From the NCBI GenBank assembly GCA_963715195.1, contig CAVQRT010000007.1:160001-224000 (forward strand): DNA of 64,000 nt, written 5' to 3'. Numbering within the stretch: the stretch's first letter is position 1; every line of letters starts with the position of its first letter. The translations under genes and the position numbers were made by a program. Of the stretch, positions 3,377-11,712 are shown one piece after another. The notes beneath the pieces are model-generated. The model saw nothing but the letters and a program-made list of their open reading frames with translations, ran no database searches and had not been told where the DNA came from. The stretch comes from Thermodesulfovibrionales bacterium. Its GTDB lineage: Bacteria; Nitrospirota; Thermodesulfovibrionia; Thermodesulfovibrionales; SM23-35.

Positions 3377-4675
3377 CTATTTGACCTTGAAAGCCTCTGT
3401 CCCGATGAGGATGACAACAATTGCAGAAAGCACCGCTTTGAAGGTGGCAGCGATAACACCGATTATGAACGCCTTGCCTCCGGCCTTTTTGAGGTCGTCA
3501 AACGCAATGTTGAGACCGACACCTGCAAATCCCACCGCAAAGAAAATTTTCAGGAATTGCTTGCCAAAAATTGTCCTGTGCTCTTCTGTGAAAACACCGA
3601 ACTCATTTAGGGTAACCATTGCAAAAAACCCAAGTATGAATAAGGGGAACTTCTCCTTTATCACCTGCCATGTATGTATCTTTTCATGTCTGCCTGCAGC
3701 GGTTGCCTGTCTGATTACATAAAACCAGATACAATAAATGACGACAAGCGGAATAAACCCTACCCTGACTATGTTAATAATATTTGCAGTGAGGAGTGAA
3801 TCGTGACCGTACCAAGTTGCCGCAGCAACGAGTTGGGCCGTATTCAGAATTGCGGTTCCAACCCATGCCCCAAAAACTGGTTCAGACATTCCCAATGCCT
3901 TGCCAATATAAGGGAAAGTGAAAAGTGCAACTGTTCCGAAAAGAAGGATCGTTCCAACCGCATAAAAGAAGTCCCTCGGTTTGGCATTGACAACCGGGGC
4001 AACAGCAACCGCAGCGGAGACTCCGCAAATCCCTGTTCCAGCAGCCATAACCCCCATAAGGCCATCGTCTTGTTTCAGTCGTCTGCCGAGAATTGATACG
4101 AGCACGGTCGTGCCGAATATAAAAATAAACACCAGTATGAGAGCAAAAATGCCAACCTTGAGAAGATTGGACCATAAATAATATCCGCCGAGCAGGATAA
4201 TGCCTGGTTTAATAATGGGTCTTGCCAAGACTGCACCTGTCTGAAAGATTTTTGGAAGTCCGATAGTGTTTCGTATGATCATACCTCCCAATAACAGAAC
4301 GGCAACGTAGGTGAGCTGGAACTGAATCATTTTTTCTCCGAACCTGAATTTGAATGGTATTTCCTTCGCAATTACAAGAGTCGTGTAATCTTTCTCTTTC
4401 AGGAGGTAAGGCTTCTTGGGCTTTTCCTTTATTTCTCCAAGCTCGAAGGCTGCAAGCTTTTCCTGATACTTTGTCTCCCTTTCTGCTTTGTATTCAGCAA
4501 AAGACAAAAAACCCCCGCCTTCTCTTTGAGAAGCCTTCAGAATCTTTTCGCTCTCCTCGGAGTCCTTCTGCCATCTATGTATGGATTGATCCCATTGAAG
4601 AGCCAACCATCCGAGTATCATGCAAAGCATGAGCCCCGGAATATATTTCACAATACCATCATTTGTACCAGTCAT
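3377..4675 (-). CDS. YeiH / putative sulfate exporter family membrane protein
   Basis: Multi-TM; motifs GIILLG, AAGTGICGVSAAVAVAP, FGAWVGTAI..TAQ.VAA, K.FP.FILGF, GVGL. Confidence 0.9.
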   Translation of the reverse strand: MTGTNDGIVKYIPGLMLCMILGWLALQWDQSIHRWQKDSEESEKILKASQREGGGFLSFAEYKAERETKYQEKLAAFELGEIKEKPKKPYLLKEKDYTTLVIAKEIPFKFRFGEKMIQFQLTYVAVLLLGGMIIRNTIGLPKIFQTGAVLARPIIKPGIILLGGYYLWSNLLKVGIFALILVFIFIFGTTVLVSILGRRLKQDDGLMGVMAAGTGICGVSAAVAVAPVVNAKPRDFFYAVGTILLFGTVALFTFPYIGKALGMSEPVFGAWVGTAILNTAQLVAAATWYGHDSLLTANIINIVRVGFIPLVVIYCIWFYVIRQATAAGRHEKIHTWQVIKEKFPLFILGFFAMVTLNEFGVFTEEHRTIFGKQFLKIFFAVGFAGVGLNIAFDDLKKAGGKAFIIGVIAATFKAVLSAIVVILIGTEAFKVK

Positions 4676-4896: not shown

Positions 4897-5316
4897 TTAC
4901 TTCATCACAAGAACCGGCACAGGCGAACGCTCAATCAGTCTTGCAGTAGTGCTTCCAAAAGCAAATTTCCTTGCACCATGCTTTCCATGGGATGCAGCTA
5001 TGATCATGTCTGCGCCTTCTCTTTTGGCTGCCTCAACAATCATTTCAGCCGGGCTGCCTGTTTCAGTGAGAACCCTTGCAGAAACCCCTGCCTTCTTGAA
5101 TGCCTCCATGGCATATGCAGTGATAACCTTAGATTCCTTTGTCTGGAGTTCCCGGACAACGGTGCAGTCCATCTCTGTCAGCCCTATCGGACAGAAATCT
5201 TCGATGACATGAACGCAGATAATCTCTGTATCCTCTTTTTGTGCAAGTTCCACGGCCTTGTCGATTGCTTTTTGTGCAAAAGCGGATCCATCATACGCGA
5301 CAATTATCTTTTGCAT
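4897..5316 (-). CDS. universal stress protein
   Basis: KIIVAYDGS..GSPAE.I..ADMII.ASHG..FGSTT..SPVPVLV; AAGGAGG RBS. Confidence 0.93.
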   Translation of the reverse strand: MQKIIVAYDGSAFAQKAIDKAVELAQKEDTEIICVHVIEDFCPIGLTEMDCTVVRELQTKESKVITAYAMEAFKKAGVSARVLTETGSPAEMIVEAAKREGADMIIAASHGKHGARKFAFGSTTARLIERSPVPVLVMK

Positions 5317-5418: not shown

Positions 5419-5937
5419 TTATGGGTTTAAAAATTTCAGCGCGATTACAACTCCTATCAATGCAAGAAGCCCAATCCCCTCAGCGAGGACGATTATTATC
5501 GTGATCCTTCTTTGAGACGGCGTCATCCTGAGCCAGAATCTGTCGAGGATCCACTTGATAATCCTGCTTTGTTTTTTCTCAAGGTATATATAATTCTTTA
5601 ACCCTTTCAACCAGTAAGGGAGATCTTCGTTCCTGAAAAAATCACCGGTTAAGGACAGACGAATTATTTCAGGTTTCATTTCATCAAGGGAAAACTCTAT
5701 TATATTTGAATCCATTATATAACAGATTCCTTTTTCCCGCATTTCAACCTGCAAACTCAATTGCGTGGTCTCATCAGCTCTGTCATCATATAGTACGAGG
5801 GAATATAGACCTTTTTCCTTGTCAGCAGCCTTGATCTCCTTGATATGCCATGATGGATTCAGCCTGAGAACGACGTCCGGTCTCAGGAAAAATTCTCTTA
5901 CCCTTTCGAACGGGGCGTTAATAGTAACAGGAGTCAT
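5419..5937 (-). CDS. hypothetical membrane-anchored protein, possibly SRPBCC/START-like
   Basis: N-terminal INAPFERVREFFLRP..LRLNP pattern, hydrophobic C-terminal helix; ATGA overlap with upstream USP. Confidence 0.6.
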   Translation of the reverse strand: MTPVTINAPFERVREFFLRPDVVLRLNPSWHIKEIKAADKEKGLYSLVLYDDRADETTQLSLQVEMREKGICYIMDSNIIEFSLDEMKPEIIRLSLTGDFFRNEDLPYWLKGLKNYIYLEKKQSRIIKWILDRFWLRMTPSQRRITIIIVLAEGIGLLALIGVVIALKFLNP

Positions 5938-6377
5938 CGTACAAAAATGGCCGGAATCCGTATTCTTTTGAAGATCTTCATCGGCAGGTTACAGGACCTT
6001 ACCCTTTCTGTGAAAGCTGTGAGAGGCCTGGCACCGAGTATCAGCAGGTCATATGAATGTTCGAATGTTTCCTTTATGATCTCTTCTTCGGGTGAACCGC
6101 ATCGTACGATAACATCGTATAATACCCCTCTTGAATCGGCTCTTGATTTGAATCCGGCTATTATATCGTCCGATTCCTTCCCGAGCTCTCTTTCGATATG
6201 ATTTCTGTATTCATTTCTCCCAACGGCATATATCTCATCCGCGAATTTCATCAGGTAAGGATTTATAACATGAAGGGCGGTAATATTTCCCTGGAATGCT
6301 TCGGCTATGTCGATGGCATAGTTGATTGCTTTTTCAGTCCACTGCTCTCCGTCAATGCAGAGAAGAATATTTTTCAT
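5934..6377 (-). CDS. universal stress protein
   Basis: Likely start MKNILLCIDG at 6377 (TGATG coupling to upstream gene); LHV, GSPEEEI, YDLLILGA. Confidence 0.88.
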   Translation of the reverse strand: MKNILLCIDGEQWTEKAINYAIDIAEAFQGNITALHVINPYLMKFADEIYAVGRNEYRNHIERELGKESDDIIAGFKSRADSRGVLYDVIVRCGSPEEEIIKETFEHSYDLLILGARPLTAFTERVRSCNLPMKIFKRIRIPAIFVR

Positions 6378-6946
6378 CACCGATCGTGTAATTTTTTCCG
6401 AACATGATAGAACCTCTGGAAAACCGTGATATGTGTCAGAACGAGCATTATCCAGAGAATCGGTACAATCCATCCCGTGAGCGTTGCAAAAATGAGAAGG
6501 ATTATTCTCTCGGGCCTTTCCATGATTCCCGTGTGGCATGATACTCCGAGGCCTTCTGCCCTCGCCCGTGCATAACTGATAAGGAATGCTCCGATTAATG
6601 TTCCGATGCTGAGGAAGGCACCGGTATGATCATGATTTGCAGCGAGATACCAGGCGATTGCAAGGAAAAGAAAAGCATCGGAGTATCTGTCGAGGAGAGA
6701 GTCGAGAAAAGCACCGAATTGTGTGACCCTTCCGGTTGTTCTTGCGACAATACCGTCGAGCATATCGAAGATGCCGCCGAACAGGATAAGAATTCCACCC
6801 AGTGTGGTGCTGTGGGGAATCGTGATGGCTGCACTGAGAGTTATGAGAAAGCCTGTTACGGTGAGGAAATTCGGACTTACCGGGATTCGTTTTGCAATCG
6901 ATCCGAGAGGAGCATCGAGAAAATGACCGAGCTTTGCACTCAGCAT
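6377..6946 (-). CDS. CDP-alcohol phosphatidyltransferase, probable phosphatidylinositol-phosphate synthase
   Basis: Signature DMLDG.VAR...T.FGAFLDS.LDR.SD, SYARARAEGLG, ERPER; abuts ino1. Confidence 0.88.
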   Translation of the reverse strand: MLSAKLGHFLDAPLGSIAKRIPVSPNFLTVTGFLITLSAAITIPHSTTLGGILILFGGIFDMLDGIVARTTGRVTQFGAFLDSLLDRYSDAFLFLAIAWYLAANHDHTGAFLSIGTLIGAFLISYARARAEGLGVSCHTGIMERPERIILLIFATLTGWIVPILWIMLVLTHITVFQRFYHVRKKLHDR

Positions 6947-8050
6947 TTACCTTTCAAGGGTCCCTTTTATGAAAGCCTCCACCATTGCCCGCGCCTTTTC
7001 ATCAGGAAACTGGATCATCGGATGCTTCATGAAATATGCTGAAGGTGAGATGAGCACGCCCCCTACTCCTCTGTCCCTTGCGATTTTACAGCACCGTAGT
7101 GCATCGATCACCACGCCTGCACTATTCGGAGAGTCCTCAACGGAGAGTCTCAGTTCCAGGTTAAGCGGGACACTTCCAAACCCTCTCCCCTCCATTCTGA
7201 GAAAACAAATTTTATTATCATGCAGCCACGGCACATAATCGGAAGGACCGATATGGATATGTTCATCACCGAGGGGTTCATTCATTTGCGATTGCACTGC
7301 CTCTGTCTTCGATATCTTTTTGAACCTGACCCTGCTTCTGTTCAGCATGTTCAGGAAGTCGGTATTTCCGCCAACATTCAGCTGGTAAGTGTTATCGATC
7401 CGGACTCCCCTGTCCTCAAAAAGTCTGGTTAGCGCCCTGTGAATGATCGTCGCACCGATCTGGCTCTTGATGTCATCCCCGATTACCGGTATCTTTCTCT
7501 GCTCAAATTTCCGTGCCCATGCTTTATCGGATGCGATAAAGACGGGGACACAATTGATGAGGCTCACGCCCGATTTCAGGCATGCTTCGGCATAGTAAGC
7601 CGTTGCTTTTTCGGAACCTACGGGGAGATAACTGATCAACATGTCGGCTCCGGTCTTCTTCAGGACCTGCACGATATTGGATGGTTTCTTTCTTGCAACC
7701 ACAAATCTCCTCTGCTCCGGATAGAGCTTCATCTGTGTTGACACCCCATCGAGGACATTTCCCATGAAAACCGGAGCCTCTAAATCGTCAAGATTCTCAG
7801 TGATCCTCTTTGTGCAATTGGGGGGAGCAAAGACAGCGTCTCTTAATGATTTGCCGACTTTCCTCTGATCTATGTCAAAGGCAGCAACGAAAGTGATATC
7901 ATCAGGCCTGTAACCGCCGAGTGAATAGTGCATGAGGCCGAGCGTCTTGTCGGGATGATTTTTTGCGAGCGAACGATAATATGCAACACCCTGAATCAAT
8001 GAACTCGCACAGTTACCGATACCCGCAACAGCAACTCTTATCTTTCCCAT
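6947..8050 (-). CDS. ino1: myo-inositol-1-phosphate synthase
   Basis: GIGNCASSL, SYLPVGS, GDDIKSQ.GAT, QLNVGGNTDFLNM, KKISKT, EDSPNSAG; start MGKIRV at 8050. Confidence 0.96.
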   Translation of the reverse strand: MGKIRVAVAGIGNCASSLIQGVAYYRSLAKNHPDKTLGLMHYSLGGYRPDDITFVAAFDIDQRKVGKSLRDAVFAPPNCTKRITENLDDLEAPVFMGNVLDGVSTQMKLYPEQRRFVVARKKPSNIVQVLKKTGADMLISYLPVGSEKATAYYAEACLKSGVSLINCVPVFIASDKAWARKFEQRKIPVIGDDIKSQIGATIIHRALTRLFEDRGVRIDNTYQLNVGGNTDFLNMLNRSRVRFKKISKTEAVQSQMNEPLGDEHIHIGPSDYVPWLHDNKICFLRMEGRGFGSVPLNLELRLSVEDSPNSAGVVIDALRCCKIARDRGVGGVLISPSAYFMKHPMIQFPDEKARAMVEAFIKGTLER

Positions 8051-8057
8051 ACTGTAT

Positions 8058-8468
8058 TCACCGTTTCTGAATGCGCTTGTATAACAACATGATAAGATCC
8101 TCAAGCTTTAGATTGAAGTCTTTCAGGAGGCTGTCCATCGATTCTTCGCAGTATTCAAGAAACCGTTTCCAGATTCTCTGCACCGTGTCCTTGTCGAGGT
8201 CCGATGCGTATGCTGTCTCCCGGAAACTCATCCCGTTTAGAAGATAACGGATGACCTCGCGTATTTTTGATTCCTTTGTGTGGAGACCGAAAAAGACTGT
8301 GTTTCTTCTCTCTGAAAATCTGAAATTGCAGGTTTTGCATTTGAGGAGTCTCCTGCGGTCTTTCCCATATCGATCGATAATGAATATATTGCCGAGGCCC
8401 TTTATTTTATGATCACTGCAGGTTTTATTCGGACAGAAAAAGTTGTCCATATCGAGAGAAATATTCAT
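8058..8468 (-). CDS. IS1-family InsA-like Zn-ribbon + HTH protein without DDE domain (putative regulator)
   Basis: FCPN..C...CKTC..RFSERRNT.FFGL..., GMSFRETA..SDLDKDTVQR; 136 aa; no InsB or terminal IRs seen. Confidence 0.75.
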   Translation of the reverse strand: MNISLDMDNFFCPNKTCSDHKIKGLGNIFIIDRYGKDRRRLLKCKTCNFRFSERRNTVFFGLHTKESKIREVIRYLLNGMSFRETAYASDLDKDTVQRIWKRFLEYCEESMDSLLKDFNLKLEDLIMLLYKRIQKR

Positions 8469-8503
8469 GTCAAGGTTATACCAGACGTCTCAGAGAAAGT
8501 CAA
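8469..8503 (-). promoter_or_regulatory. sigma70 promoter giving a probable leaderless mRNA
   Basis: TTGACT-17 bp-TATAAC (TG extended -10), then 6 nt, then ATG at 8468. Confidence 0.75.
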
Positions 8504-8540
8504 GCTCATTATCAATGATATGGGGACAAGAAGGAACCGT

Positions 8541-9614
8541 TCATGCTATGCGATTGATACCCACTTTTCGATACAACAGGGGAAAGTTCACATGCTCTGT
8601 GACGATATGCATACCGCGTTCCACTTTTTCCCTGTCACGCAACCTGAGCCTGATGGACAGTTTTTCCAATTTTTTTGCAACGCTGTAAGTGTCCTCCCGT
8701 ACCACGATCATCGGAATGTTCTTCTGCTCCGCTATCGAAAGGATGATCTCACTGGGATACAGGTCGCCGGTTAGGATCAGACAGACGGAACCTGATTCTA
8801 TGGCTGAAAGTTGAATATCAGACCGGTCGCCACCGACAATGACCGCATTATTGCGCATTTTTTTGAAATACTCGATAGCCTTGTCTACCTGCATTGCTCC
8901 GATCAGGAAATGTTCAACAAGGTTCGTGAGTTTATCGTGACAGCATAACACTTTCCCCCCGAGCATATCATTCAGTTCTTCTACGGTGACCGATCCGACT
9001 ATCGCATCATGAGGGATTACCCCGAGGATGTCTATCTTCTTGCGCTGAAGAAAAGGGAGGGTGTATTCATATGCACTTTGCTTCAGGTCCGCGGAGACTT
9101 TATTCAGAATAACGCCGAGAAACCGCTCTTTTAGGTCCTTTTTTGCCTGAAGCACATAATCGGCAATGTACTCGCCCTCGTATTTTACCACGAGAACAAC
9201 CTTCGCGTTGAGACGCTTGATGACCTCAAGTCCCTGAAGGCCAAGGTAACTTCCGGTATAGATGCTTCCATACCCGCCGATAATGACAATATCCTTGTTT
9301 CTGGATACTACTTCATGTGACTTCACAACCTTTGGCATGAGCCCTTTCATTTCTTTCCGATAACTTTTCACTTCAAGCTCCTGGGTGAGAACGACTGGGC
9401 ATAGTGCATGTAGGGGATCTTTCAGGTCAAGTGCCCGGTAAATGCGCCATGCATCATTGTCTGTAAGAATGTCGTTCACCTTTACCGGCAAGATGCCGAC
9501 CGGTTTTATATACCCTATGTTCAGTCCGTCCCTGATAAATTTGTAACCAAGCCCCATGGTTACGAGGGTCTTTCCGGTATAGCCTGAAGTTGATCCAATA
9601 TACAGAGAAACCAT
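8541..9614 (-). CDS. phosphotransacetylase N-terminal-family protein (BioD-like + DRTGG), no PTA catalytic domain
   Basis: ST..YTGKT, GY.KPVG, IGAM, VGGDRSDIQL.AIE, LILTG; GGAGGTGA RBS before ATG 9614. Confidence 0.88.
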   Translation of the reverse strand: MVSLYIGSTSGYTGKTLVTMGLGYKFIRDGLNIGYIKPVGILPVKVNDILTDNDAWRIYRALDLKDPLHALCPVVLTQELEVKSYRKEMKGLMPKVVKSHEVVSRNKDIVIIGGYGSIYTGSYLGLQGLEVIKRLNAKVVLVVKYEGEYIADYVLQAKKDLKERFLGVILNKVSADLKQSAYEYTLPFLQRKKIDILGVIPHDAIVGSVTVEELNDMLGGKVLCCHDKLTNLVEHFLIGAMQVDKAIEYFKKMRNNAVIVGGDRSDIQLSAIESGSVCLILTGDLYPSEIILSIAEQKNIPMIVVREDTYSVAKKLEKLSIRLRLRDREKVERGMHIVTEHVNFPLLYRKVGINRIA

Positions 9615-9615
9615 T

Positions 9616-11712
9616 TCAGTCACCTCCTATGGTAAAACGTGCATCGATTGCTACGAGGCCTTCTCCCCGGTCTTTTACCAGGAGGGGATTGATATCCGCC
9701 TCAACAATACGGGGGAAATCCGAAGCCATTTGTGACAAAACCAAAAGGGCATGTTCAATGGCTTCGATATCGACTTCGGCTTCTCCCCTGACTCCCCGCA
9801 GGAGGGGAAAAGACTTTGTCTCCCTGATCATTTCGTGAGCATCTTCTCTGCTCAATGGAGCGATCCGGAAAGCGACGTCCTTGAGGACTTCCACATAAAT
9901 GCCGCCCATGCCGAACATGATCAGATGACCGAACTGCGGGTCGCTGGTAATTCCCATGATGACCTCTTTTCCTTTCGGAACCATTTCCTGGATCAAAACG
10001 CCCTCAATATGTGCAGAAGGAAGAATATTCCTGACACGGGTCGTTATGTCGAAGAATGCATTTTTCACATCTCTCTTGGTGTTCAGATTAATTTTGACAC
10101 CGCCGATATCACTCTTATGGGAAATCTGCGGTGAGACGATTTTCATCACCACAGGGAAGCCTATTTCCCCGGCAGCGAAAATGGCTTCTCCCGGAGTGCG
10201 TGCAAACAGGCTTTTTGGCTGGGGGAACCCGTATGCATGCAGCACGTCGTGGACTTCCAGTTCATACAACCGGTCACGATTCTCTTCCTGTGCTTTTTTA
10301 AAAATATGAGCTGCTTTTTCCCGGTATTCTCCCGTTGCTGTAAAATGCCTCTCAGGTTTTTGAAGCCACAGGTGATACCGGTACATGGCATTCAGGGAAG
10401 TCACCATTTCTTCGGGATAACTGTAGTTTGGGATACCGTTTTTCAGGAGCAGTCTGGCACTCGCCTCAACGCGCATTTTCCCCATAAAGGATGTCAGTAT
10501 CGGTCTGTCAATCATTCGTGCAACATTGATCACGGCCTGTGCGGTTGCCTCAACGTCAATAACCGCAGTAGGAGTCAGCAGGACCATGACACTGTTTATT
10601 CTCTCATCCTTCAGGACTGTGATGAGTGTTTTTTCATACCGGTCTGCACCAGAATCTCCGAGGATATCGATTGGATTATAAAAGGAGGCAACAGCAGGCA
10701 GAAATGTCCTGAGCTCATCCACGTATTCCTTGTGGAGAGGAATAAGCTGAAGATTCGATTTGTCGCAGGCATCGGCGGTGAGGATGCCCGGCCCGCCAGA
10801 ATTGGTTATGATTGCCACGTTCGGACCCCGTGGAACAGGCTGATGAGCAAATGCAATGGCAAAATTGAACAGTTCGTTGAGCGTGTGTGCTCTGATGACG
10901 CCGCTCTGCTTAAATGCCGCGTCAAAAGCTGCTTCACGGCCCGCGAGTGCTCCGGTATGAGAGGAAGCAGCCTTTGCCCCTGAGGTGGTTATTCCGGATT
11001 TCAGAATAATGACCGGCTTTTTTCGCGATACCATGCGGGCAACCTCCATGAATTTTCTTCCGTCGCTCAGCCCTTCAATGTATCCTAAAATGACTTTTGT
11101 ATGATCATCTTCAGACAGGGCAAGCATGATATCCGTGTCCGTTATATCTGCCTTATTCCCCATACTGATAAATTTCGAAAATCCGATTCCGTCAGGGAGT
11201 GCACGATCGAGCACCGCGAGGCAGAGAGCGCCTGACTGAGAAAAGAAGCCGATGCTTCCCTGTGCAGGCATGCCGGCAGCAAATGATGCATTGATTTTCG
11301 AGTAGGTATCGATGATGCCCAGGCAATTCGGCCCGATAAACCTAACACCTGCCTGTTTTGCCTTGATGATCAGTTCATGTTCCAGCTTCAATCCGTCGGT
11401 GCCGCTCTCCCGAAACCCCGCCGAAATGATAATTGCAGAATCAATGTTTCTCGCTCCGCACTGGCCGATGATTTCGAGAACATTCATTGGCGGGACAACG
11501 ATGACTGCAAGGTCTATTTCTCCAGGCACATCGATGAGGGATGGATATGCCTTTTTTCCGAAAATCTCGGACGCTGCCGGATTAATCGGGTAAACCGTCC
11601 CGTCATAGCCATACTGAACGATATTCCTAAGAAGATCGTATCCTATCTTTCCGGGACTGCGGGATGCACCGACAACAGCAATGGATTGAGCGCGAAAAAA
11701 ATTACCGAGCAC
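9616..11712 (-). CDS. acetate/acyl-CoA ligase (NDP-forming), fused alpha-beta
   Basis: AVVGAS, GPNCLG, SQSGA, ASSHTG (phospho-His), NSGGPG, NPIDILGD, C-terminal ATP-grasp HKSDIGGV..DINP..DAR. Confidence 0.93.
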   Translation of the reverse strand: MLGNFFRAQSIAVVGASRSPGKIGYDLLRNIVQYGYDGTVYPINPAASEIFGKKAYPSLIDVPGEIDLAVIVVPPMNVLEIIGQCGARNIDSAIIISAGFRESGTDGLKLEHELIIKAKQAGVRFIGPNCLGIIDTYSKINASFAAGMPAQGSIGFFSQSGALCLAVLDRALPDGIGFSKFISMGNKADITDTDIMLALSEDDHTKVILGYIEGLSDGRKFMEVARMVSRKKPVIILKSGITTSGAKAASSHTGALAGREAAFDAAFKQSGVIRAHTLNELFNFAIAFAHQPVPRGPNVAIITNSGGPGILTADACDKSNLQLIPLHKEYVDELRTFLPAVASFYNPIDILGDSGADRYEKTLITVLKDERINSVMVLLTPTAVIDVEATAQAVINVARMIDRPILTSFMGKMRVEASARLLLKNGIPNYSYPEEMVTSLNAMYRYHLWLQKPERHFTATGEYREKAAHIFKKAQEENRDRLYELEVHDVLHAYGFPQPKSLFARTPGEAIFAAGEIGFPVVMKIVSPQISHKSDIGGVKINLNTKRDVKNAFFDITTRVRNILPSAHIEGVLIQEMVPKGKEVIMGITSDPQFGHLIMFGMGGIYVEVLKDVAFRIAPLSREDAHEMIRETKSFPLLRGVRGEAEVDIEAIEHALLVLSQMASDFPRIVEADINPLLVKDRGEGLVAIDARFTIGGD

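Follow-up and report, generated by a model that had tools for sequence, protein, structure and literature searches.

A probable autoregulator of an inositol-phospholipid operon in Thermodesulfovibrionia, derived from the left end of an IS1-family element

The 64,000-nucleotide stretch analysed here, hereafter the window, comes from a bacterium of the order Thermodesulfovibrionales (contig CAVQRT010000007.1, positions 160,001 to 224,000) and carries on its minus strand a gene for a 136-aa protein (8058-8468), which directly precedes ino1, the gene encoding myo-inositol-1-phosphate synthase. We think it probable that this gene, now a host gene, is the equivalent of InsA, i.e. the first open reading frame (ORF1) of an IS1-family insertion sequence (IS), left without ORF2 and without the right end of the element, and that its product binds a box that was once part of the left inverted repeat (IRL) and in this way represses the promoter of its own ino1 operon. 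With only slightly less confidence we suggest that the whole left end (inner IRL, promoter and ORF1) was exapted once, in the ancestor of a class-level clade of Thermodesulfovibrionia, as an autoregulatory cassette for a stress-linked inositol-phospholipid operon, and that the cassette subsequently passed from a leadered to a leaderless state.

The protein reads as the original prediction had described it: an ORF of 136 aa with a Zn ribbon and a helix-turn-helix (HTH), ending 7 bp before ino1. Its Zn-ribbon motifs are C12-P-N-K-T-C17 and C44-K-T-C47-N-F-R-F-S-E-R, with the codons of the four cysteines (C12, C17, C44, C47) at 8328..8435 of the minus strand, and they are followed by the HTH (residues ~66-100, codons 8169..8273 of the minus strand) with the recognition helix DKDTVQRIW. 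Pfam HTH_28 matches the protein at residues 71-110 (E 4e-6) and is found in all 26 intact orthologues that we collected from related genomes, while an AlphaFold2 (AF2) model (pLDDT 75.6) has strands at 28-52 and helices at 66-77, 82-88 and 93-109. A sequence search of solved structures gave nothing significant, the best matches being the Zn domain of the ATCase regulatory chain (E 0.006) and then region 4 of sigma-H (0.04). The stop codon TGA lies at 8060-8058 and the ATG of ino1 at 8050, with a gap of 7 nt; no DDE frame follows the ORF because ino1 comes there, and the absence of a DDE/InsB frame, which had likewise been claimed, is therefore real.

An origin from IS1 had been proposed as well, and it is borne out by profile links to the N-termini of proteins with the domain DDE_Tnp_IS1 and by the nearest non-syntenic relatives, which are the ORF1 products of two-ORF IS elements. 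All 26 orthologues match the NCBIfam model transpos_IS1 (NF033558), all of them below its threshold (best 4.4e-6), the protein of the window scoring 25.5 bits at a cut-off of 100; the NCBIfam model ISL3 also matches 19 of the 26, and Pfam TnsD gives sub-threshold matches in 25 of the 26. An exhaustive profile search of 1.84 billion representatives returned 1649 proteins at E<=1e-3, 369 of them at E<=1e-10, and 24 long proteins among these matches were scanned for domains. In three proteins of 366-383 aa (P0166, P0195, P0268) and one of 244 aa (P0173) the first ~135 residues match the profile (E 1.5e-18 to 1.8e-14) and DDE_Tnp_IS1 lies further on, above the Pfam cut-off in P0195 and P0268 and just below it in P0166 and P0173. 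A word search had found no such fused or longer forms at E<=1e-3; it was the exhaustive profile search that later found them. Furthermore, hhalign aligns residues 31-136 with an IS1-family transposase from the same order (L039, itself with DDE_Tnp_IS1 at 3.7e-7) at a probability of 96.3% and E 1.7e-9, and the match stops where the catalytic 'CDEIW' segment of that transposase begins.

A scan of GTDB species representatives, which overlap with our set of related genomes, yielded 80 loci: the next gene is ino1 in 71 of them, the CDP-alcohol transferase gene that follows ino1 in the window in three, and a different gene in six. These six (L127, L130, L132-L135) come from candidate Peribacteria, Anaerolineales, Desulfobacteraceae, Syntrophales and one unclassified bacterium, and they are IS elements. 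Their ORF1s of 136-169 aa are 39-45% identical to the protein of the window by tblastn (L127: 46% in the alignment), have the same CPNxxC...CKTCNxRFSE ribbon and end in '...ECQLDELWxFxKKR', the point at which the protein of the window also ends ('K---LEDLIMLLYKR'). Five of the six (not L134) have an overlapping ORF2 of 203-239 aa; among the four ORF2s scanned, DDE_Tnp_IS1 reaches 35-42 bits in L130, L132 and L135 at a cut-off of 24.1, and 22.7 bits in L127. Pairs of inverted repeats (IRs) are present in all six, with 16-22 of 26 positions matching (for example the 25-nt repeats of L132, 3042-3066 / 4223-4247, and of L135, 3905-3929 / 5001-5025). The element without ORF2 (L134, 981-1826) is an IS derivative of 846 bp that has both IRs (22 of 26) and ORF1 only, i.e. 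an InsA-only mini element.

A metagenome scan with the six ORF1s added 80 more loci (L136-L205 among the IS relatives), including 41 complete copies of 1198-1209 bp in which the right IR matches at at least 19 of 25 positions. The IS relatives are spread over several phyla, often on short contigs, and show 1-3 matches per metagenome-assembled genome (MAG), a copy number that is uninformative because such assemblies collapse repeats. A maximum-likelihood tree of 81 rows (70 syntenic proteins, the six IS ORF1s and five transposase N-termini; rows shorter than 110 aa or with X were dropped) places all 70 syntenic proteins on one side of one branch with a support of 99/93. We use only this split between syntenic and IS sequences, because the columns are few and the outgroup branches long; judging from it, the ino1-linked gene has a single origin.

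The host locus appears to have kept a part of the IS end together with the ORF. A conserved box, TGTCCCCATATCATTGA (8512..8528, minus strand), with the asymmetric consensus TGTCCCCAyTTyATTGA, lies 7-10 nt upstream of the -35 hexamer, at about -60 to -44 from the predicted transcription start, and is our candidate operator. It is present in all 26 orthologous loci (two of them, L009 and L013, were fitted by eye after a script had mis-parsed them, and L026 has it directly against the -35), and of the 65 scorable GTDB loci 64 have it. The left IR of the IS relatives reads GGTnn-TGTC(C/A)CC(A/T)...ATTGTTA and is followed 7-10 nt later by a -35-like hexamer and a -10; the box aligns with this IRL at the same distance to the -35. 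By this alignment, box and promoter are homologous to IRL and promoter of the IS elements, and the box is the relic of an inner IRL. The 5-nt tip of the IR, the equivalent of the cleavage site, is not conserved in the host loci. At the left end, where the box remains from the IRL of the IS, the statement that terminal inverted repeats are missing accordingly does not hold; it stands for the right end, where no IR was found: copies of the box pattern that might represent a right IR stay within chance on both strands of the window, and a search of the genome gave none either.

In summary, the locus shares with the ~1.2-kb elements (L127, L130, L132-L135; L136-L205) the ribbon, the KDTVQR helix of their TGTCCCC subgroup and the layout from box to promoter, whereas the elements, unlike the host locus, have the GGTnn tip of 5 nt, a leader of 25-40 nt with a Shine-Dalgarno sequence after the promoter, a DDE ORF2 and a right IR. 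Among 63 metagenome loci with readable helix and box, KDTVQR goes with TGTCCCC in 14 of 14 and KD[A/G][V/I]NR with TGTCAC in 49 of 49, and the host protein and its box are of the KDTVQR/TGTCCCC type. The 2.8-Mb genome contains no exact site other than the box; a search of this genome for a second box or regulon member gave one site at 2 mismatches, which equals the control with the reversed pattern. The covariation and the uniqueness of the box are indirect indications that the protein may bind it. None of six genomes without the 136-aa gene has the box upstream of ino1.

The operators suggested in the original prediction were different ones, namely three small palindromes or repeats: AGACGTCT at 8483-8490, CTTGAC at 8469-8474 and 8499-8504, and TCATT-GAT-AATGA at 8506-8518, the TCATT arm of which is overlapped by the box. 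All of them are present in the window and none is conserved in relatives, and we reject them as operators for this reason. The promoter spacer often has some dyad symmetry in relatives, with differing sequences.

The promoter itself was correctly recognized as TTGACT-17-TATAAC, a near-consensus form, and its coordinates are confirmed. The -35 hexamer TTGACT occupies 8498..8503 of the minus strand, and the extended -10 (8475..8483, minus strand), 17 nt past the -35, consists of TATAAC at 8480-8475 with TGG directly before it. Then 6 nt lead to the ATG start codon (8466..8468, minus strand), so that transcription is predicted to start on or next to its A. TTGAC[A/T] and TATAA[A/C] are kept in the 26 loci, with spacers of 17-19 nt. 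The ATG is conserved in all 26 orthologues, in which it is the sole candidate in-frame start after the -10, the frame often opening at the TAA inside TATAAA; M7 of the window's protein is not conserved in the orthologues. This conserved geometry from promoter to ATG leaves no room for a Shine-Dalgarno sequence, and we infer that transcription starts at or next to the A of the ATG at 8468 and produces a leaderless mRNA.

The leaderless layout that had been claimed from the single sequence is borne out by the comparison of relatives. From the 74 syntenic GTDB loci 65 could be scored, all with an ATG start codon: six were unusable (truncated, with N, or without the anchor), L117 has no promoter region on its contig, and two have no in-frame ATG after the -10 by anchor, namely L058, which has only a GTG 4 nt after the -10, and L126, which was not resolved. 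In 56 of the 65, 4-9 nt separate the -10 and the ATG; five loci have 10-12 nt and one has -1 nt between them, and three early-branching loci have 26-66 nt. In these earliest branches (L128, L129, L131) the start codon follows 66, 29 and 26 nt after the -10, respectively; the leaders of L129 and L131 carry a Shine-Dalgarno sequence, and L128 has no box and a doubtful promoter call. Four loci with ino1 and without the 136-aa gene (L031-L034) have a TTGACA-17/18-TATAA(A/C) promoter of their own, with a leader of 40-60 nt.

The 136-aa gene occurs once in its own genome (2.8 Mb, 36 contigs). Among 41 related genomes, the own included, 26 contain one intact copy each and one (G004) a remnant only. 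In 24 of the 26 intact loci ino1 is the next gene on the same strand, and in the other two the CDP-alcohol transferase gene is directly next. ino1 itself is found in 35 of the 41 genomes, eight of which have no 136-aa gene, and none of the six genomes without ino1 has one. The neighbours are the same in all 74 non-IS loci of the GTDB scan, which belong to Thermodesulfovibrionia/Nitrospirota by their record titles, and 286 protein clusters matched at E<=1e-3 in a word-based search; those listed, 120 in number, have lengths of 130-144 aa and identities of 68-99%, the named ones coming from Nitrospirota MAGs. The original prediction had asked whether the gene is a single copy fixed next to ino1 with dN/dS<<1, and the data agree with all of this: it is single copy, it lies beside ino1 or the CDP-alcohol transferase gene, it forms one clade in the tree, and its dN/dS is about 0.08.

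That the gene is a still-mobile or recent IS copy that came to lie before ino1 by chance would fit the names that some sources give to its homologues ('IS1 family transposase' or 'transposase-like protein'). We give this explanation hardly any credence: there is neither an ORF2 nor a right IR (no other occurrence of the box pattern was found on the two strands of the window), and the gene, a single copy, occupies one and the same locus throughout a class-level clade that stands apart from the IS copies. An active IS1-family insertion sequence is rejected: ORF2, an IR pair and a multicopy or variable position were all tested and not found.

The coding sequence is also maintained. For the 26 orthologues the Nei-Gojobori method gives a median pN of 0.157 and a median pS of 0.86; synonymous sites are saturated in 267 of the 325 orthologue pairs, and the 28 pairs with dS < 2 give a median dN/dS of 0.079. 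No variation is seen at the four ribbon cysteines, in FSER, in the helix DKDT..RIW or at C107. The 136-aa gene is under strong purifying selection, and by these comparisons the conservation of ORF, promoter geometry and the 17-nt box in 26 of 26 loci despite synonymous saturation is more than chance. In G004 (L027, 1450-1610) a deletion has removed the regulator ORF up to roughly codon 105, the start codon included, and what is left of it, the last ~30 codons, contains a TGA; box, promoter, ino1 and transferase gene are all intact in this genome, which makes it a natural knock-out for comparison.

The loss in G004 of the ORF with retention of the promoter could be read in favour of a passive fossil, in which only the captured IS promoter matters and the frame survives as a spacer or for translational coupling. 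The promoter does derive from an IS end, and the Shine-Dalgarno-like GGTGA of ino1 (8058..8062, minus strand) overlaps the end of the ORF, i.e. its last sense codon and stop. A fossil would hardly combine a dN/dS of about 0.08 with saturated synonymous sites, a Zn ribbon and recognition helix that are invariant in 26 of 26 orthologues, and a steady length (130-144 aa among the 120 of 286 clusters listed), and we therefore regard this explanation as very improbable.

Alternatively, the selected function might concern transposition: the protein would act against incoming IS elements of its own subgroup, blocking them by binding to their ends, and its position in the ino1 operon would be incidental. 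According to the accessible part of PMC12428005, InsA prevails over the transposase at both IRs; IS relatives that have this type of box exist in nature, and a search of the own genome yielded no second copy of the box and hence no related IS. An inhibitor of this kind is nevertheless improbable, if somewhat less so than a fossil. All 74 non-IS GTDB loci have the gene at the head of the ino1/transferase operon, it is found in none of the six genomes without ino1, and the box stands at a fixed distance from the promoter, a linkage that an immunity gene would not need.

We therefore return to the autoregulatory circuit, which would work as follows. Transcription would start at or next to the A of the ATG at 8468 and produce a leaderless mRNA, on whose 5' AUG 70S ribosomes would initiate. 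Termination would take place at the UGA (8060-8058) inside the GGUGA that would serve ino1, 7 nt downstream, which suggests translational coupling. Zn ribbon and HTH of the protein would contact the box as InsA contacts the ends of IS1, and occupancy of the box beside the -35 would lower initiation, resulting in negative feedback on a near-consensus promoter. The genes regulated by this promoter would be the 136-aa gene itself, ino1 and the gene of the inositol-phosphate lipid synthase. The accessible part of PMC12428005 describes InsA of IS1 as repressing a promoter that partly overlaps IRL and as outcompeting the transposase at both IRs via its Zn finger and HTH. Site, promoter and the gene of the binding protein, the three parts needed for the IS1 circuit, are all kept at the host locus.

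The same ancestry is compatible with the opposite sign: sitting at the former IRL box, the protein might recruit RNA polymerase and activate the operon, perhaps under stress. At textbook promoters the region from about -60 to -44 is bound by activators more often than by repressors, and the box, upstream of the -35, is thus in the usual place of an activator; the surroundings are also stress-linked, with Usp genes in the window and Hsp20 in 12 relatives. On the other hand, a core promoter this near to consensus (TTGACA, a spacer of 17-18 nt, a TG-extended or TATAAA -10) rarely needs an activator and would suit a repressor. In addition, box, promoter, ino1 and transferase gene have outlived the ORF in G004, and where the gene is missing from a genome, ino1 has a similar TTGACA-17/18-TATAAA promoter followed by a normal leader; both observations support repression without proving it. 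The ancestral InsA, too, is a repressor in the accessible part of PMC12428005. We consider activation unlikely, though clearly less so than an inhibitor of transposition, and favour repression over activation by roughly three to one, a preference kept this low because the box sits at a typical activator position.

Several observations weigh against the reading that we prefer, i.e. an IS1-derived autorepressor on a leaderless mRNA. The box at about -60 to -44 is one of them, and the deletion in G004 is a single case that could be recent. The -10 is without the usual final T, and a simple promoter scan, which accepts only -10 elements that end in T, missed the promoter at 8475-8503; a -10 without final T seems to be usual in the lineage, since the ino1 promoters of L031-L034 also have TATAA(A/C). 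Contigs of three metatranscriptome runs leave 8058-8540 uncovered; over 6300-9700 they cover parts of ino1 (6841-7178) and of the upstream DRTGG gene (8908-9201), and short pieces at 7338-7387 come from other organisms. The covariation of helix and box is effectively one change, because only two clades are involved. With respect to ancestry, hhalign gives a probability of only 8% against a classical IS1 transposase (L036), the Pfam InsA models (Zn_ribbon_InsA PF03811, HTH_Tnp_IS1) are not listed for the window's protein at E<=1 and are likewise absent from the 25 most-matched families over the 26 members, and Foldseek found no match to the AF2 model in the PDB at E<=1e-3, only weak generic HTHs of LuxR/NarL/sigma-4 type. 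The profile comparison that had been proposed thus succeeded for the N-termini of IS1 transposases and failed for the classical InsA models. Because L036 aligns poorly and the Pfam InsA models do not match, the kinship is, as far as profiles can tell, with a divergent IS1 subgroup and not with the classical InsA of the E. coli type.

The comparison with known systems nevertheless begins with InsA of E. coli IS1. Both proteins have an N-terminal Zn finger followed by an HTH, and both are ORF1 products that end where a frameshift would continue into the DDE domain; in both cases the promoter lies at a left IR bound by the protein or its ancestors, and autorepression is predicted here by analogy. 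InsA of IS1 is about 90 aa long, compared with 136 aa here. Unlike insA, the 136-aa gene lies outside any IS (no ORF2, no right IR), is a syntenic single copy and drives host genes; it belongs to a divergent IS1 subgroup with elements of 1.2 kb, and its mRNA is predicted to be leaderless.

The recruitment of transposase DNA-binding domains as host transcription factors is well known in eukaryotes, and to our knowledge few cases of such domestication are documented in bacteria. SETMAR/Hsmar1 is a eukaryotic transposase-derived DNA-binding protein that still recognises the old terminal repeats, and it resembles the case proposed here in that a transposase DNA-binding domain was co-opted with its cognate terminal-repeat site; it differs in being eukaryotic and in having many dispersed sites, in contrast to one site and one operon in a bacterium. 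Actinobacterial ino1 has dedicated regulators such as the LacI-type IpsA, which is likewise associated with ino1 and has an unrelated fold and origin, no transposon ancestry and a host outside Nitrospirota, the phylum of the organism studied here. The nearest bacterial parallel that we found is TldR, which the accessible part of PMC10705468 presents as TnpB-derived, RNA-guided transcription factors in bacteria. There, as we propose for the present case, a bacterial transposon-encoded protein has been exapted as regulator of host genes. TldR belongs to another family and is guided by RNA, whereas here the DNA-binding domain of the protein and its own former transposon end would be reused together. 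A literature search found no description of the 136-aa family, of an InsA-derived host regulator or of inositol regulation in this lineage.

If our reading is correct, a bacterial transposase DNA-binding module was domesticated with its own terminal repeat as operator, in the pattern of eukaryotic factors. The steps of this process would be preserved in mobile elements of the same layout, in early host copies with a leader, in the leaderless clade and in one natural deletion. The locus would further offer a testable pair of protein and operator, a candidate for the regulation of inositol-lipid synthesis in bacteria other than Actinobacteria, and, in a predicted leaderless regulator gene, a natural example that is conserved.

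Some long proteins carry the same Zn-ribbon/HTH module at the C-terminus (in P0178 at the N-terminus), with E 1e-15 to 1e-20, next to domains of unrelated kinds: HD_4 (P0150, P0168, P0232, P0236, P0238), GNAT (P0187/P0236), TPR (P0177), an XylR/AraC-type domain (P0178), HTH_3 (P0248) and MinE (P0240). These fusions may be further independent recruitments of the module, and some could be gene-calling fusions; the association with HD, GNAT, TPR and XylR/AraC-type domains is a hint that the module has been recruited repeatedly. In another genome of the same order (G120) the classical IS1 transposase model matches 19 times, and many of these matches contain stop codons, which looks like an IS1 expansion with decay.

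The remaining genes of the operon follow on the minus strand. ino1 (6947..8050) matches Pfam Inos-1-P_synth at 2e-35 and the NCBIfam inositol-3-phosphate synthase at 4e-132. The CDP-alcohol phosphatidyltransferase (6377..6946) is nearest to archaetidyl- and phosphatidyl-inositol-phosphate synthases, its scores remaining below the cut-offs (173 bits vs 180; 146 bits vs 170). The ATG of a universal stress protein (Pfam Usp; 5934..6377) overlaps the transferase stop as TGATG, and this gene has in turn an ATGA overlap with an ORF of 172 aa with a C-terminal hydrophobic segment (5419..5937, minus strand), which matches no family in Pfam or NCBIfam. The latter is probably the last gene of the operon; a terminator-like hairpin lies beyond it at 5368-5354. 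Upstream on the same strand (8541-11712) are genes for an ADP-forming acyl-CoA synthetase and for a DRTGG/BioD-like protein, which corresponds to the N-terminal portion of proteins of the phosphotransacetylase type; the DRTGG gene adjoins the 136-aa gene in most relatives too.

An Hsp20/alpha-crystallin gene stands between the 136-aa gene and ino1 in 12 of the GTDB loci: L078 (4417-4860; confirmed by Pfam), L097, L098, L103, L111, L112, L114, L116, L118, L120, L123 and L125. Because Usp genes follow in the window and Hsp20 is inserted in these 12 relatives, a link of the inositol operon to stress is suggested. An Hsp20 gene also lies directly upstream of ino1 in L030 (1858-2265), a genome without the 136-aa gene.

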